64,000 nt of DNA from IMG/VR virus record IMGVR_UViG_2791355164_000001, positions 26,242 to 90,241 of that record; one strand, 5' to 3'. The translations under genes were made by a program, and so were the position numbers. A model generated the notes under the pieces. The model did not search any database, was not told the DNA's origin, and worked only from the letters and a program-made list of their open reading frames with translations. Origin of the DNA: a virus (lineage: Duplodnaviria > Caudoviricetes). Positions 11,788-60,217 of this stretch are shown piece after piece; within the stretch, counting starts at the first letter, position 1, and each line of letters opens with the position of its first letter.

Positions 11788-12032
11788 TGTGGATAACTGT
11801 TTAGCCTCATGAGTTATCCACTTATCCACTGAATAGATCCTAAAAATAGATCATTAGTAGATCAAAGATAGATCAAAGAAGATCACCGCCGTTATAAGGC
11901 AATGATTTTAAATATAAAAACAGCTTTTTGCGTTAGTCTATTCATGGTAAATGTTAGTCTATTCATGGTAAACGTTAGTCTATTCATGGCAAATGTTAGT
12001 CTATTCATGGTAGGTTGTTAGTCTATTCATGG
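11788..12032 (+). other. Plasmid replication origin (P1 oriR-like)
   Basis: DnaA box TGTGGATAA at 11788 and tandem TTATCCAC at 11814/11822; five AGATC repeats at 11835-11884; five iterons follow. Confidence 0.88.
11932..12032 (+). repeat. Origin iterons (incC-like), 5 x GTTAGTCTATTCATGG
   Basis: Copies start at 11932, 11953, 11974, 11995 and 12017 (21-22 bp period). Confidence 0.92.
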
Positions 12033-12076
12033 TAGCGAACCATATTACTCACATTTCACAGTGGCAGAATGATATC

Positions 12077-12958
12077 ATGCAAAAAGATAATGAAATCATA
12101 ACTATATCTGATGCTCTATGTGTTGAAGGTGGCGATAATGGGGAAAGTTATACTCTTACGCCAACGGATAACAAAACAGTTCAGCCTATTGCTCTCATGC
12201 GCTTAGGGATTTTCGTTCCTGGTTCCAAAAGGTTGCCTTCGCGTGGGTATGTGTCTGTCGATGCTACTCAAGAATTGGGCACTTTAGAGCTTGCCAAATC
12301 AGAGGGTTATACGGATATTTCTATCCGTGGAAGCCGTCTCGATATGAGCACGGATTTTAAAACATGGATCGGCGTTATTCGTGCGTTCTCAAAGCATGGC
12401 AAAAGTAGCAACCGAATTACCCTGCCTTTCACCGAATTTGCCAAGTTAACCGGCATAGCTGTTGACGATATAAATCAGCGTTCGAGAGACAGATTCTTTG
12501 ATTCTCTGGTGCGCCTGTCCTCTTTAGTGGTTTCTTTCAAAAATAAAGACGGAAGTAAGGTTACGATCACACACCTGCTTCAATACGCTACCTATGACAT
12601 AAAGAGTGACACCATTAGTTTGGAAGGTGACTCGCGCCTATGGGAGCTTTATAGCTATGATCACAAGGTTTTGTTGCAGCTTAAAGCTATTCAGGCATTA
12701 CCTCGAAAAGAGTCAGCACAAGCGTTATATGTCTACATCGAAAGCATGCCAAACAGTGCATTACAGCTGTCGTTACCGAGGCTACGTGAACGTCTCAATC
12801 TAAGATCCAGCCTTAGTGCGCAGAACCTTGCAGTACGAAATGCTATGAAAGAGCTGGAGAAGATTGGGTATTTGACATACAGCGAAGTGAAAAAAAACGG
12901 GACGGTATTTTTCCTGATTCACTCACGCAAACCAGGCTTAAGACCTCAATTGAATTGA
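12077..12958 (+). CDS. repA: Plasmid replication initiator RepA (P1/RepFIB-like)
   Basis: TVQPIALMRLGIFVP, RLDMSTDFKTWIG, LPRKESAQALY motifs; flanked by iterons. Confidence 0.92.
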   Translation: MQKDNEIITISDALCVEGGDNGESYTLTPTDNKTVQPIALMRLGIFVPGSKRLPSRGYVSVDATQELGTLELAKSEGYTDISIRGSRLDMSTDFKTWIGVIRAFSKHGKSSNRITLPFTEFAKLTGIAVDDINQRSRDRFFDSLVRLSSLVVSFKNKDGSKVTITHLLQYATYDIKSDTISLEGDSRLWELYSYDHKVLLQLKAIQALPRKESAQALYVYIESMPNSALQLSLPRLRERLNLRSSLSAQNLAVRNAMKELEKIGYLTYSEVKKNGTVFFLIHSRKPGLRPQLN

Positions 12959-17246: not shown

Positions 17247-17392
17247 CTCCATCCTGCGAAACTCACCAGCCAGCCGCCATCATGCGGCGCTGGTGGGACT
17301 TGTGCAAAGCACCCCATTGGTTAATGAAAAATTTAAACTTTCCTTAGAATATTATATCATTTAGTCCGAAATTAACCATTGGACTAAATGAT

Positions 17393-31791: not shown

Positions 31792-32868
31792 ATGCCTAAC
31801 TTCAGCGACCTAGAATTTGAAAAGCGCTACAAACAATTTCTGCAGGTTCAACATGACTGGCTGACTCTCATTACGGACAATAAATTCTTTTCTGACACTA
31901 ACGCGGTGGGTGAAGAGTGCCGTCCGGCTGGCCTTCTTACCGATTCATCACAGTTTCAGCATGCCCAGCACCTGCTGGCTGAATGGCAGAGTTTTGCCGA
32001 CCTGGCAGAAGAAAAGCGTAAAGAGCGCAGTATCGCCATTACCACAAACCTTTATCTGCCTGTTCCAGTACTGCTGATTAATCCTGCATACGTTCAGATT
32101 GACCGTTTTCGCGCTACAGCGACCGCTAATCATAAGCGTGAAGATATCCTGATGCGCTATGAAAAGCAGATCGGCAAGCTTAAGAAGATTACCCACGCTT
32201 TCGGTGCAATCATGACGCTGGAAGATGAACGTAAGTACTTTGAGGCTGCACCGGTTGCTACCGTGTTCCGCGCCCGTACCAGCACCTATACCGATATCCA
32301 GGTAAGCGTGCGTCATACAGCAGATCAGCAGGAAGTTGATAAGTTCCGCTACGGCGCGCACGGTATGCTTATCATCGGTGACGACCTCGCGCTGGGGCGT
32401 AATATCAAACTCAACGTGAGCGTATCAAACACCAAAAGCTCACTGTACGACTTCATCCAGCCTATTCCGTGCTCCGTTCTGCCGTCCGCGCAGGTCTACA
32501 CCCTTGAGGACGTGGAGCTGGGTAAAAAGATGGTTTCGCAGCGGGCGTCTGTTGCCTATGCCGTTAAACAGCGTCGCTATCAGTTTGATAAGCGCGCGAA
32601 GGAAAAGATGGCGCGGGCAAAAGGTCCTGAAGAGGCGCGTGCTATCAGCCAGGAAATTGAAACCGGACGCGAAGTGCTGGAACTTATGGACGCACACGAC
32701 TTTGAACTGCTCGACCGGAAGCTGGCCGCAGGGGATGAATCGCAGCTTACCATGCTGCAGATCCGCGAACGCTACGGCAATGAATCCGACCGCACCGGGA
32801 AAAATATCCGCAACATGCCGGAATTTCTCGCAAAACTGATTGCTAAAGAAGAGAAGAAGGGCAATTAA
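31792..32868 (+). CDS. Probable primary repressor (P1 C1 position)
   Basis: Between lox and pacB, convergent with pacB as in P1; operator upstream; mainly a positional call. Confidence 0.55.
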   Translation: MPNFSDLEFEKRYKQFLQVQHDWLTLITDNKFFSDTNAVGEECRPAGLLTDSSQFQHAQHLLAEWQSFADLAEEKRKERSIAITTNLYLPVPVLLINPAYVQIDRFRATATANHKREDILMRYEKQIGKLKKITHAFGAIMTLEDERKYFEAAPVATVFRARTSTYTDIQVSVRHTADQQEVDKFRYGAHGMLIIGDDLALGRNIKLNVSVSNTKSSLYDFIQPIPCSVLPSAQVYTLEDVELGKKMVSQRASVAYAVKQRRYQFDKRAKEKMARAKGPEEARAISQEIETGREVLELMDAHDFELLDRKLAAGDESQLTMLQIRERYGNESDRTGKNIRNMPEFLAKLIAKEEKKGN

Positions 32869-38410: not shown

Positions 38411-38809
38411 TCAGCGGTAGCTTTTCAGAAGGTGGCTGACTGTATTTGACCAGTTAGTTACGGTGTCACGGGCTAAGCGGTGAACGACCTGGCTGTAAAG
38501 GTTATCCGGTAATGGTTCCCCGGCTTCATCCTCAAACCGTAATCCTTCTGTCGTACCTGACTTACTCATATTCACACTGTAATCAAACTTGCCCGTTGCT
38601 CCGTACATGCCTATCTGTTGCTGAGCCTGCCAGGTAAAGCGCACGCCACACCCTTTCCTGAGCTCAAACACTACGGTCCCTTCCACCAGCATCACTGACT
38701 GCTTCTCACCTGTAGGCAGTGACTTATTGCGGCATGCCACTGATGTGACTTTGCAGTGATCCGCGCGCCAGCCCAGCAGTTCCAGCCCTTTGAGTTTTAC
38801 CGTCTCCAT
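38411..38809 (-). CDS. Hypothetical protein
   Basis: Coupled to upstream ORF. Confidence 0.55.
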   Translation of the reverse strand: METVKLKGLELLGWRADHCKVTSVACRNKSLPTGEKQSVMLVEGTVVFELRKGCGVRFTWQAQQQIGMYGATGKFDYSVNMSKSGTTEGLRFEDEAGEPLPDNLYSQVVHRLARDTVTNWSNTVSHLLKSYR

Positions 38810-39387
38810 TAAATCAGTCTCCAGTCGCTTGCCAGCAGATCGGCGGTTACGGGCGTCCAGTCAGCCGTTGTCAGCTGCTCGGTATTGGTCAGAACGAACT
38901 GAGGCATGCGCGTTACGGACGCCTGCGGATCGTGGTCAAAGAATCGCGCCGGCACGCCGTACATATCGGTGCCGTTCAGCGGGTGCCGTGTGGTGCCTCT
39001 GTTGAGGCGCAGATGCGTTCCCTCTCCCCACGCTTTACGTGCCACTTTTGCGCCGTCAGAGAGCCACACATGCGCGACGGCCATAGGCGCGCCCTCTTCC
39101 CTGAATTTCAGCATGCCCTCGTCTATCAGCTGTTCGCTGCGCAGGATCAGATCGTTCAGTTGCAGCATGGCCAGACAGGTAGCGTGATTAAGCGATTCCC
39201 CGCGGGCGGTCATGGTCAGTGCGCCTTTGCTCACCGTGGCTGACCAATCAGTTGCGGTCTGTGACTGGTGCGTTACCACAAAGCCCAGGTGCTCCAGAAC
39301 GTTCAGCATCGCCATATAGTCGCCGGTATAGTTGCCTGCAGCGCCGGCAATCATGCCAATCATTCCGTTTATTTGTTGATCGTTCAT
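38809..39387 (-). CDS. Two-domain protein with C-terminal DUF2829/Tad2-like domain
   Basis: KVARKAW ... WTPVTADLLASDW motif; N-domain resembles phage ABA-sandwich family. Confidence 0.65.
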   Translation of the reverse strand: MNDQQINGMIGMIAGAAGNYTGDYMAMLNVLEHLGFVVTHQSQTATDWSATVSKGALTMTARGESLNHATCLAMLQLNDLILRSEQLIDEGMLKFREEGAPMAVAHVWLSDGAKVARKAWGEGTHLRLNRGTTRHPLNGTDMYGVPARFFDHDPQASVTRMPQFVLTNTEQLTTADWTPVTADLLASDWRLI

Positions 39388-39642: not shown

Positions 39643-39783
39643 GCTCTCTCTCTGTCGTGCAGGCGTGCAGAATCCCCGGCGATTGCCGGTGGTTAAAATT
39701 CACCTGATTAATTCCGGCGCCGGGTGCGCACGGGGATGTTCTGAGACCTGTCCCGGCGGCTGGCCGGGTGGCTATGTAGGCAT

Positions 39784-39884
39784 TGTGCTGGCCGGATTTG
39801 AACCGGCGACCTTTCGCTTGTCCCTATCACCGCCCTGCAGGCCGAATAAAAGAGCGAACGCTGCTGCCGCTGAGCTACAACACA
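39784..39884 (-). ncRNA. tRNA-like RNA with 36-nt insert in place of the anticodon loop
   Basis: TGTGTTG-TA-GCTCAG...; stem TTCGC/GCGAA; AGGTC; GCCGG-TTCAAAT-CCGGC; CAGCACA. Confidence 0.65.
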
Positions 39885-54816: not shown

Positions 54817-55125
54817 TTAATTGTTATCCAGATGCTTTACTGCCCTAAATATCTTTTTTTCAGCAGGTTTTTTAGGTTTCTTCGGGGTGTTAAGTACCAG
54901 GTATTCTTGCTGTCCTTCTTTTTCATCCGGCCTGGTAATACAGAACGGACAAACCTTCACGCCCGAAAAGTGCATAGAGGCTACGGTCAGTGCCTGATTA
55001 AGCGTATAGCAGGTGCCAATGAACGTTCGTTCTTCAAGTGAAGGCAGCTGCGGGCAGTCTATCCGGTGTAGGAGCAACCCGGATGGAAAATGATCACTGA
55101 CAAAATATTTCATAGCCTTATACAT
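54817..55125 (-). CDS. Hypothetical Zn-binding protein
   Basis: H...C and CPFC motifs; AT-rich upstream region. Confidence 0.55.
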   Translation of the reverse strand: MYKAMKYFVSDHFPSGLLLHRIDCPQLPSLEERTFIGTCYTLNQALTVASMHFSGVKVCPFCITRPDEKEGQQEYLVLNTPKKPKKPAEKKIFRAVKHLDNN

Positions 55126-55662
55126 ACTTCATCCTCTTGCTGTGTGCATAAAACTTCCATGTTAGATATGAAACTTTTCAGCGTAAATCTACGCTAAAGA
55201 GCTTACGCAAATGTTATGTGATGTTTATTTAATTTCATCAACACATTAACTAATTTGCGTTAAGAGAAACTAACATCATAAATTAAATTTAAAAAAGAAC
55301 TTTTTAAAAAACTAAATTAATCTTTAGTAAGTCCAAATCAAATTATGAATGTCACATTCAGTGGCTCAATTTTTGTAAGTACATGATATTTACCGATTCG
55401 CTTACATATGCTGAACTGCACAAAGTTGCACCATTAAGAAAACGTCCGTTAAAAAAAACCATGACTTTCTGAGTGAATTTTTTTCATGTAACGCTAGCAC
55501 ATAATTTGCTCAGTATTTCTGACAATAAACCTGGTTTATGCTCAGAATATTTGCCGTTTCGCTTTGCCATGACAATGTTGATAATCTATCTTCGCAACCA
55601 TTCATAATCTAACTAACTACGTGGTCAGACCATCTGATTAGATAAATTTTTCACTTATGCAG

Positions 55663-55920
55663 TCAGTCTGAGAGCGCGATAACCTGCCAGTCAGCAGAAA
55701 GCATATCTTCAGGTGATGGACAGTAGAAATTCAGTGTCCCGATGTCATTCATGAAAACGTACTGAATCTGATCGTCAGCATCAGGCAGTATGGATACGTG
55801 GTTAGCCGTATCGCCCCACTTTGCACGGCGGCAAATGGCGTCACTATTCTGACTGATTGTTAACATGGCAGAAGCGAAAGTGTGCGCTGCAGGGGATGGC
55901 GCGCGAGGGATATCAGACAT
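55663..55920 (-). CDS. Stand-alone DUF2829/Tad2-like protein
   Basis: TFASAM...CRRAKW...YCPSPEDMLSADW; GGGAG RBS. Confidence 0.7.
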   Translation of the reverse strand: MSDIPRAPSPAAHTFASAMLTISQNSDAICRRAKWGDTANHVSILPDADDQIQYVFMNDIGTLNFYCPSPEDMLSADWQVIALSD

Positions 55921-55972
55921 GGTGTGCTCCCTGTGCTTAAAGAAGCGTCACTACAGGAGGTTCCAATCTCCG

Positions 55973-56053
55973 GGTGGTGACGTTGACAGGGTTGGAACTA
56001 CCGGCGCACAAGAAAACCGGCCTACCCGAAGGTAGCCCCACCAACGCCACCAT
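55973..56053 (-). ncRNA. C4-type antisense RNA
   Basis: ATGGTGGCGTTGGTGGGGCTACCTTCGGGTAGGCCGG...CCGGTAGTTCCAACCCTGTCAACGTCACCACC cloverleaf; GTTCCAA loop complementary to TTGGAAC targets at 56124-56133 and 55959-55968. Confidence 0.8.
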
Positions 56054-56255
56054 AGATACGCCCGGAATGATCCGGACGTGGTAGCGCCGAAGGCACTATG
56101 TGCCAGCTCTCATGCTTTTTCAGGGTTCCAATCCCGACCGCTGTTTTGCAGCGGCGCGCACACTATATCCGCCGCACTGATAAATTCAATATGTCTAATG
56201 TGAAATTATCCACTGGTCATTAGATCCACGCATGGATCAAGAAAAGTTACCTACG

Positions 56256-56277
56256 CAAATTACAACCGTCCTACCAT
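56256..56277 (+). promoter_or_regulatory. Putative late promoter for pro
   Basis: CAAATTACA-N7-TACCAT. Confidence 0.7.
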
Positions 56278-59115: not shown

Positions 59116-59341
59116 TAGTGGGAAGAAAGGCCGCATGGTGCGGCCATTGTGTGTTAGCTCATAGCGGGCATTAAGCACCCACAGTCCGCTCTGTGACAGA
59201 AGCGGTTTTTACTACCATTTCTTAATAAGGGAATTCTAAAGAAAAAACGACTAAAACGGAGGGTTTAATTAAATTCTGATATTTCCATTCGTGCATTTGA
59301 ACGATAAAGTCAATGTAAATTTTTCTCTGAATGGGGTGAAG

Positions 59342-60217
59342 ATGAGGTTATCACGGTCACTATGCAAAGTTGTTGGGGACGTTATTGCTAACACTGCGTC
59401 TCATGAAGCAATCGAATCATTATTTTACTCTGTGGGCGCTCGTGGTGAACCACCAAAAGGAGCTCATGATACTAAGTGGAAGAACTGGTTATACCTCACA
59501 GGTCAGGATAAGGAGGTTGATAGCCTATCTGTGTTAGGTGGGGTGATTGAAGAGTTTATGGATCTTCCTCCGAAACAAGGAAGCCCCGAGTATATTGAAT
59601 GGTCTGAAAAAAGAGAGGGTGTCGAAGCCGCGTTACATGATAATGGTTTTCAATATTATCGTTTTGGCCGCATTTTACCTTTGGGTCACATCCCTGCAGA
59701 TGATATCCCATATGAAGAGACTTTAAGAATTAGTCAGCAGCCAGTTATTCCTCAGAAAGTGGAAGCTTTGCTGGAAAGGTTGGTTAGAGGTTTGCAACGT
59801 GCTATGCACCCTCTCACACACCGAAGAAAAGGAAGCCAGAATTTAACGTTTAGCAATGAATATGATGTGCAAGATTTACTTCATTCATTATTGAGACCTT
59901 GGGTTCAAGATATACGCCCAGAAGAATTTACTCCTAGCTATGCTGGTTCTAGCACTAGGATGGATTTTCTTTTGCCTGCGCATAGTCTTGTTCTTGAAAC
60001 AAAAATTGTAAGAGACCGTACTCATGCCAAAAAAATTGGCGATGAGCTTATAATTGATATTGAACATTACAGACGGCATAGTGAATGCAATAATTTATGG
60101 TGTATCGTATATGACCCAAACAAATATATAACTAATTCACAAGGATTTAAAACTGACCTGGAAGGTGAACGATCAAGTAAAGATGGAAAAGTCTTGGTGA
60201 AAGTATATGTGATCTAG
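59342..60217 (+). CDS. PD-(D/E)xK nuclease, DpnII/MboI-like REase domain (putative defence gene)
   Basis: NEYDVQD, EEFTPSYAG, RMDFLL...LETK, DIEHY, VYDP; AT-rich. Confidence 0.75.
   Translation: MRLSRSLCKVVGDVIANTASHEAIESLFYSVGARGEPPKGAHDTKWKNWLYLTGQDKEVDSLSVLGGVIEEFMDLPPKQGSPEYIEWSEKREGVEAALHDNGFQYYRFGRILPLGHIPADDIPYEETLRISQQPVIPQKVEALLERLVRGLQRAMHPLTHRRKGSQNLTFSNEYDVQDLLHSLLRPWVQDIRPEEFTPSYAGSSTRMDFLLPAHSLVLETKIVRDRTHAKKIGDELIIDIEHYRRHSECNNLWCIVYDPNKYITNSQGFKTDLEGERSSKDGKVLVKVYVI

Follow-up and report, generated by a model that had tools for sequence, protein, structure and literature searches.

What does a C4 antisense-RNA switch control in a phage genome where neither icd nor ant can be recognised? 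This question is raised by a locus in a 64,000-nucleotide (nt) stretch of viral DNA (hereafter the window), which corresponds to bases 26242-90241 of the 90,241-bp virus record IMGVR_UViG_2791355164_000001, an element with direct terminal repeats and a completeness rated 100%. A sequence-only reading of the window had placed such a switch in front of a small Tad2-like gene, instead of an antirepressor, and had proposed a timer giving a burst of anti-defence protein just after DNA entry, then silence. The switch proved to be a genuine one of the P1 type, and it stands before a Tad2-family gene and not before icd/ant, its pairing being backed by covariation and by linkage in 18 of 18 real relatives. 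The locus is best explained as an immI c4 module of the P1 type with an exchanged cargo, and to this explanation as a whole, including the role of the protein as a sponge for immune signals and the timing of its expression, we assign a probability of about 0.5.

All elements of the cassette lie on the minus strand (Table 1). The promoter announced from the sequence (TTGAAT-16 nt-TATAGT) is present; a promoter match taken alone is at chance level in this region (5 promoter-like sites in a 1.8-kb scan versus 3.7 +/- 1.8 in shuffled sequences), yet neither hexamer varies among the 14 relatives aligned. The leader that follows is matched full-length by the Rfam c4-a1b1 model RF03163, with E 1.2e-9 in a 901-nt search and a score just below the gathering value (43.9 versus 46.7 bits), at the position where such a leader would be expected. 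The C4 RNA with its GTTCCAA loop, also described from the letters alone, is recognised by the Rfam C4 model over its full length and above the gathering score; it occurs as a single copy in the 90,241-bp genome. Its minimum free energy fold is a cloverleaf (-39.3 kcal/mol), in which the b' loop UUUUCUUGUGCG belongs to hairpin 2 (56016-56005) and the a' junction GUUCCAA occupies positions 55998-55992. This junction is complementary to both TTGGAAC sites, each contained in a copy of GATTGGAACC, one upstream (56133-56124) and one downstream of C4 (55968-55959), as had been noticed. TTGGAAC is found four times in the 90-kb genome, both strands considered, and three of these occurrences belong to the cassette. 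While the a-type targets had thus been correctly identified, b1 and the b2 site covering the Shine-Dalgarno sequence had been overlooked, and b2 is the mechanistically important target. Taken together, a' and b' are complementary to a1/b1 upstream and to a2/b2 downstream, with b2 at the ribosome-binding site of an 85-amino acid (aa) open reading frame (ORF) whose ATG lies 50 nt after C4. The absence of icd and ant was also confirmed: neither follows this ORF, after which come an AT-rich spacer of 537 nt, an ORF of 102 aa and the end of prt, in convergent orientation, and neither is present in the genome.

The pairing of C4 with the ORF leader is supported by the covariation of b' with b2, together with the strict linkage described below. 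Covariation was examined in an alignment of 14 sequences, 12 of them distinct. Over the ten b'-b2 pairs, 99.2% of cells were paired; two pairs showed a compensatory change (UA to CG and GC to AU, in three sequences each) and four a change on one side only, whereas controls in which the partner was slid by 1-3 columns gave a paired fraction of 33-49%, counted over all cells of the structure tested. Two loop classes were distinguished, UUGUGC (type I) and UCGUAC (type II), and loop-b2 duplexes ranged from -14.6 to -19.7 kcal/mol for cognate combinations versus -7.7 to -12.2 for non-cognate ones. The b'-b2 duplex of the cassette in the window, at -14.6 kcal/mol, was equalled in 1.9% of 3000 random 53-nt segments of the genome. 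Two further candidates were set aside. One was a cis hairpin hiding the Shine-Dalgarno sequence, in which a CUCC beside a2 pairs with GGAG in several variants; the folds were weak (-10 to -18 kcal/mol) and variant-dependent, and were not used as evidence. The other was a TTGGAAC inside repA, followed 19 nt later by a b-like site, as a trans target or C4 mimic (window 12222, within 12180-12230, minus strand; -15.1 kcal/mol). This site is not conserved, for any loop type, in the repA of pEuc3, pPA-MXU-90 and pMMD61212-C_C and is therefore probably due to chance.

Relatives of the 85-aa ORF were collected in several ways. A word-indexed search returned 7 close proteins, and a profile search of 1.84 billion cluster representatives gave 22 matches at E <=0.001, some of which, being long repetitive proteins, were left out; the subfamily is represented here by 19 short members. 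Searching contigs with the subfamily proteins gave 19 loci. In 16 of these, a full C4 (81.8-85.4 bits) precedes the ORF at a distance of about 50 nt; two others are contig ends cut within C4, which retain its 3' half with a2 and b2, and the last (L003) was rejected as an unrelated ORF sharing only the 8-residue word DADDQIQY. The cassette is thus present in every one of the 18 real relatives. It was also carried by all four named plasmid records examined (three from Pantoea and one recorded as Acinetobacter), out of six covering most of the cassette. At every locus with enough flanking sequence, the cassette lies between pro and prt of one lineage, where prt is 92-99% and pro 78-99% identical while the ORF falls to 39-59%. 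At locus L012, the ORF aligns without gaps at 65.5% DNA identity, compared with 91-98% for C4, leader, promoter and flanks. In L011, L014, L063 and L064, the AT-rich spacer is missing and the convergent end of prt comes within about 55-80 nt of the ORF, which is then the sole gene between C4 and prt and hence the cargo of the switch. In a phage collection, the cassette was unmatched by megablast and the ORF by tblastn; with blastn, the C4 part alone was matched in three records, phiP27 (two accessions) and Shae_phiSM. The simplest history is a cargo swap within a conserved switch, the cassette being now inverted between prt and pro.

Table 1. Coordinates of the cassette elements and of neighbouring features (window positions)
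Feature	Position	Strand	Remarks
Candidate operator, conserved 15-mer GAAATTATCCACTGG	56202..56216		12 nt upstream of -35
Promoter, sigma-70 type, TTGAAT-16 nt-TATAGT	56162..56189	-	-35 at 56189-56184, -10 at 56167-56162; 9/12 consensus matches
Two-hairpin leader, c4-a1b1 type	56117..56168	-	a1 in the loop of the second hairpin; RF03163, 43.9 bits
a1 target TTGGAAC	56125..56131	-	complementary to C4 a'; 7 pairs invariant in 12 distinct sequences
b1 target GCATGAGAG (also written GCAUGAGAG)	56107..56115	-	complementary to the b' loop, G-U pairs included
C4 antisense RNA gene	55970..56057	-	RF01695, 84.0 bits (gathering 45), E 4.6e-15, model 1-87/87
a2 target TTGGAAC	55960..55966	-	3 nt past the C4 3' end; 7/7 pairs formed, invariant in 12/12 distinct sequences
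b2 target GCACAGGGAG	55927..55936	-	contains Shine-Dalgarno GGGAG, 6 nt before ATG
85-aa Tad2-like (DUF2829) ORF, regulated cargo	55663..55920	-	PF11195, 29.8 bits versus cut-off 25, E 8.9e-7
AT-rich, poorly conserved spacer	55126..55662		no convincing ORF; 71% identity to L012/L002 versus 91-98% for flanks
102-aa accessory ORF, no named family	54817..55125	-	weak Pfam/PHROG rows, unnamed Atlas clusters
Late-promoter-like motif CAAATTACAA-N6-TA before pro	56256..56273	+	neighbour of the switch, not part of it

The cargo had been called DUF2829-like, in agreement with the PF11195 search (Table 1), and the same family is matched by all 19 members of the subfamily, with a best E of 2.4e-9. An AlphaFold (AF2) model built on the 19-sequence alignment (predicted local distance difference test, pLDDT, 88.3; predicted template modelling score, pTM, 0.73) shows helices (H) and strands (E) in the order H-E-E-E-E-H-E. 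In Foldseek, all listed rows to rank 24 were Tad2 or AcrIIA7 (TM 0.63-0.68, E 0.004-0.1, none <=0.001), and VIA-align gave ten Tad2-family entries with Z 8.6-10.0 and a root-mean-square deviation of 1.9-2.6 A over 67-69 residues, the next fold having Z 4.2. By both comparisons, the predicted model has the Tad2 fold (a helix at the N terminus and then an antiparallel sheet) on which the sequence-only reading depended. When subfamily profiles were run against PDB sequences, profile A2 matched Tad2 weakly (E 0.028-0.39) and profile A1 matched nothing at E up to 10. Residues R32, W35, P68, D77 and W78 are invariant in the subfamily and D72 is nearly always present. According to the preprint on SPO1 Tad2 (bioRxiv 10.1101/2023.05.01.538930), its contacts with glyco-cyclic ADP-ribose (gcADPR) involve W25, N26, W73 and D79; in a weak alignment (E 0.03-0.06), these correspond to W35, G36, Y66 and D72, three of the four being kept or conservatively replaced. 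The gene diverges rapidly: its nonsynonymous divergence (dN) is 0.10-0.57, and in the same pairs pro has 0.008-0.14, a 2- to 12-fold difference, and prt 0.005-0.05. The ratio of dN to synonymous divergence (dS), omega, was 0.13-0.70 for the ORF, 0.11-0.15 for pro and 0.05-0.06 for prt, with dS saturated in two pairs. The ORF is thus a real coding gene under purifying selection, and a fast-evolving one. Judging from its family, its predicted fold and three of the four pocket residues, the 85-aa protein may have an anti-defence role as a sponge for immune nucleotides, a proposal that we regard as evenly balanced.

A second protein with a Tad2-like domain is encoded in the window (38809-39387, minus strand; 192 aa, domain at residues 108-191, PF11195 44.2 bits). 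It is unlinked to the cassette and lies beside tRNA genes, with no C4 nearby, and a D6 gene (L057) is similarly placed by a tRNA. Three matches to tRNA models occur at 39.7-41.6 kb of the window, one of which (39783-39884, minus strand) is 102 nt long with a 35-nt insert in the anticodon region and may be intron-bearing or degenerate.

The source element is a D6/P1-like phage-plasmid of Pantoea. Homologues were found for 11 of the 21 P1 proteins tried, with best-segment identities of 24-57%: prt (50%), pro (43%), darB (43%), ulx, cre, ref, mat, darA, pmgC, tub and isaA. The other ten, icd, ant1, lyz, simB, simC, ssb, lxc, c8, hxr and lydD, found no homologue in the genome. The portal is closer to that of phage D6 (63.7% identity) than to that of P1 (50%), and near-identical or related elements are 87-96-kb Pantoea plasmids, along with one record labelled Acinetobacter. 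The genome carries a Rep3-type replication gene flanked by iterons; the plasmid origin has five direct repeats CCATGAATAGACTAAC (window 11940-12040) just upstream of this repA (12029-12958, plus strand). A C1-like repressor is encoded at about 31819-32538 of the window (E 8e-11, with 23% identity over 246 residues), a finding consistent with a temperate life style. Coi had no match in the genome, icd and ant1 had none by tblastn, and a domain search found none of PF03374 (ANT), PF02498 (Bro-N) and PF09669 (Rha).

In P1, C4 is processed from its leader by RNase P to a stable RNA of about 77 nt. If the locus described here works likewise, the promoter, flanked by a conserved operator-like site, would transcribe the a1/b1 leader, C4 and the 85-aa ORF as one RNA, from which C4 would be cut, presumably by RNase P as in P1. 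C4 would then accumulate and pair through a' with a2 and through b' with b2 of later transcripts, and the latter pairing would hide the Shine-Dalgarno sequence and block translation of the ORF. The Tad2-fold protein would most likely soak up nucleotide immune signals, such as the gcADPR of Thoeris and possibly cyclic oligonucleotides. A pulse of protein would come from the first transcripts after DNA entry, and expression would cease when stable C4 had accumulated in the plasmid-prophage. What was observed comprises the elements of the cassette with their arrangement, distances and linkage, the covariation of b' with b2, and the assignment of the protein to the Tad2 family and fold, and that C4 controls the Tad2-like ORF is very probable; C4 processing, translational repression, ligand binding and timing are what we infer, with the burst followed by silence suggested by analogy with P1 biology.

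Several points weigh against this explanation. The pairs formed by a' with a1 and a2 never vary, and covariation is thus uninformative about them either way. The MAFFT register gives no support to the b1 pairing (85% of cells paired, zero two-sided changes); folding each sequence separately placed the best site for its own loop 5-10 nt after a1 in 13 of 14 sequences, the exception being the window sequence itself, where an alternative site is better by 0.4 kcal/mol. As for the protein, the ORF exceeds its Pfam threshold by just 4.8 bits and is matched by no family of NCBIfam or PHROG, and SPO1 Tad2 N26 is replaced by G36. Since each transcript yields one C4 and one target, a pulse needs C4 to outlive the mRNA, a property known for P1 only. 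Finally, C4 modules elsewhere usually control antirepressors, the genome has no recognisable one, and the ORF could fill that role.

This last point leads to a different reading of the same switch, in which the Tad2-fold protein would serve the lysis-lysogeny decision as a small antirepressor, or as a modulator of the C1-like repressor, replacing icd/ant. We consider this possible but unlikely. The residues invariant or nearly invariant in the subfamily make up the motif that characterises Tad2, and among them are three that line the pocket for the ligand in SPO1 Tad2. The company kept by C4 at other loci points the other way. C4 was matched 37 times, in 19 of 151 genomes of the order holding the Pantoea metagenome-assembled genome. 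At 29 loci other than the cassette, the ORF considered was the first plausible one after C4, and three loci had none by the rule used; the Pfam-named cargo among the remaining 26 is mostly of antirepressor type (pRha 3, Bro-N 2, AntA 1), in addition to HTH_35 (3) and ankyrin repeats (2), and PF11195 is found in none of the 26. D6, too, carries a c4-icd-Roi-like antirepressor arrangement. With C1 present and neither an ANT, Bro-N or Rha domain nor a Coi match, the antirepressor niche of the genome looks empty, and the fast evolution of the protein could reflect co-evolution with a repressor. To our knowledge, however, no Tad2-family protein has been described as an antirepressor.

The same survey indicates that C4 cargo is diverse. 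Small Icd-sized ORFs after C4 match no family, like P1 Icd itself. Ankyrin-repeat ORFs follow C4 at L050 (1643-2050) and L052 (804-1484) of genome G048, and HTH_35/Ner-like ORFs at L033, L045 and L051 (G093), so that a C4 match should not default to antirepressor control. Conversely, PF11195 occurs in 5 of 401 genomes of the order, and no C4 lies within 1.5 kb of the other Tad2-like genes at the 10 loci scanned, eight from these genomes and two from D6 (of four further Tad2-like loci, left out of the scan, each either is the cassette or overlaps one of the ten).

That C4 and the ORF might form an addiction pair resembling a type I toxin-antitoxin system, with a harmful protein kept off by its antisense RNA, is very unlikely. 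The idea is suggested by RefSeq (PGAP), which names the orthologue an 'MW1434 family type I TA system toxin' in three Pantoea plasmids, although no family of the current NCBIfam library (release 20) matches the ORF at E <=0.01. An antisense RNA over the Shine-Dalgarno sequence of a small ORF is formally a type I layout, and the P1 counterpart Icd is a cell-division inhibitor according to the P1 record; yet the predicted product is a soluble alpha/beta protein with the Tad2 fold and not a small hydrophobic peptide. Addiction moreover requires an unstable antitoxin, whereas C4 is a tRNA-like RNA that is stable in P1. That C4 is a relic of a lost icd-ant operon lying without regulatory meaning beside an independently expressed ORF would agree with the invariant a sites, but is extremely improbable given the co-change of b' and b2 in two pairs (99.2% paired over 12 distinct sequences versus 33-49% in slid controls), the linkage in 18/18 real relatives, and the 94-100% conservation of C4, leader and promoter beside an ORF at 65% DNA identity.

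An extension of the timed sponge, which we regard as distinctly speculative, is that a resident prophage uses its C4 to silence in trans the Tad2-like gene of a related newcomer whose b'/b2 type matches its own, a superinfection exclusion acting by disarming counter-defence. If true, the newcomer would be left exposed to the signalling-based immunity of the host, and the switch would be a weapon between phage-plasmids as much as a timer. The two b'/b2 classes and the fast evolution of the cargo in a conserved cassette would then be traces of escape.

Several features surround the cassette. The 15-mer upstream of the promoter keeps its spacing to the -35 in all 19 cassettes, with a single mismatch in one and none in the other 18, and the pattern GAAATTAWCCAYTGG has five sites in the window (17368, 29177, 35935, 43331 and 56202) versus 0.02 expected, the one at 17368 sitting within a longer palindrome. 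By analogy with Oc4 of P1, located beside the c4 promoters, the 15-mer is probably an operator of the C1-like repressor. On the other side, the late-promoter-like motif before pro belongs to a pattern, CAAATTACAR-N6-TA, found at four sites in the window (9985, 35789, 56256 and 59098) versus none expected, each time in front of genes. The pattern is similar to the Lpa-dependent late promoters of P1, and the lysozyme gene has one of the copies before it, as it does in P1. Because the cassette separates pro from prt, this motif would supply pro with a late promoter of its own. The 102-aa ORF is absent in L011 and L014 and occurs twice in L018; being variable and not always present, it is probably not part of the switch, and together with the spacer it may mark a small hot spot for accessory genes. 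Plasmid records also carry an 'ash family protein' CDS (coding sequence) over the C4 gene, as in L059 (2793-2933; CP060164.1) and many E. coli P1-like plasmids, and both this name and that of 'MW1434 type I TA toxin' are likely annotation artefacts. Beside the lysozyme gene, an ORF at 59291-60217 of the window (plus strand) has a DpnII/MboI-type restriction endonuclease domain (PF18742, E 9.7e-47).

Switch and protein family are each known, and it is their combination at this locus that is new; to date it is restricted to a single lineage of Pantoea phage-plasmids. In a literature search with subscription journals and supplements outside its scope, no paper joined C4 antisense RNA with Tad2, Thoeris or anti-defence, none among the matches listed combined a C4 term with DUF2829, and no Tad2 gene was reported under antisense-RNA control. 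A recent preprint detected Tad2/AcrIIA7 with DefenseFinder in 93% of D6-like and 56% of P1-like phage-plasmids, and its available passages say nothing on their regulation (10.1101/2025.09.12.675607). The subfamily may already figure in the lists of Tad2 homologues of Yirmiya et al. or in the anti-defence tables of this preprint. If the proposed explanation holds, it would represent RNA-based timing of a counter-defence gene. Signal sponges are useful at entry and probably costly or dangerous in a lysogen, because the host is also disarmed against other phages. The known brake on anti-CRISPRs is a protein repressor; here, a well-understood RNA switch, with pairing rules known from P1, appears to have been turned to the control of a Tad2-family gene. 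Loop and target variants occurring in nature provide a ready-made set of compensatory mutants, making the idea of a timed anti-defence gene directly testable.

Among the systems closest to this one is immI of P1 and P7 (c4-icd-ant1/2). The P1 record gives two targets, a (TTGACAG) and b (GTTAGTG), one of each before C4 (a1, b1) and after it (a2, b2), with a2 three nt after C4, b2 beside the icd start, and icd 51 nt after C4; in the P1 sequence, b2 runs into the icd ribosome-binding site. The order and spacing of promoter, a1, b1, C4, a2, b2 over the Shine-Dalgarno sequence and first ORF are the same here, a2 being 3 nt after C4 in both and the start codon 51 nt after it in P1 versus 50 nt here, and an operator-like site also stands beside the promoter. 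P1 and P7 differ in C4 specificity (heteroimmunity), and the two loop/target classes found here resemble this situation. In contrast to immI, the genome has no icd/ant anywhere, and the sole cargo is the Tad2-family ORF. Phage D6, the closest characterised relative, has a C4 of 69.6 bits, a c4-a1b1 leader of 55.9 bits that passes the gathering score, and the same prt-pro-repL-lysozyme neighbourhood; its C4 is however followed, 47 nt on, by icd and a Roi-like antirepressor, and its two Tad2-like genes lie elsewhere, with no C4 within 1.5 kb. The prt and pro genes, which overlap in P1 and lie 13 nt from each other in D6, are separated here by the inverted cassette.

With the Tad2/AcrIIA7 sponges (SPO1 Tad2, ModTad2, SptTad2 and HgmTad2), the 85-aa protein shares the Pfam family, the size, the predicted fold, and the conserved R..W and P-S-x-x-D...D-W motifs. 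It differs from them by an identity of 14-21%, by a G in place of SPO1 N26, and by its membership of a small subfamily (22 matches among 1.84 billion representatives). A further parallel is isrK-orf45-anrP of the Salmonella prophage Gifsy-1, since the leader described here matches the isrK model RF01394 weakly (32 bits versus a gathering score of 50). In Gifsy-1 (PMC4825925), a processed stable RNA, STnc1160, follows IsrK and translation of the small ORF is RNA-controlled, the cargo being orf45 and the antirepressor AnrP, where a Tad2-like ORF is found here. An IsrK small RNA was rejected for the present locus: the hairpin GGCACAUAGUGCC is followed by UUCGGCG, with no U-run, and no terminator was found in the scan, so a separate short activator RNA of this kind is not expected. 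A functional parallel may be seen in the anti-CRISPR operons shut off by Aca repressors, in which an early pulse of counter-defence is automatically ended by a product of the same operon. The logic of pulse and shut-off would be the same in both, but whereas Aca is a DNA-binding protein acting on transcription, the brake here would be a processed antisense RNA acting on translation.

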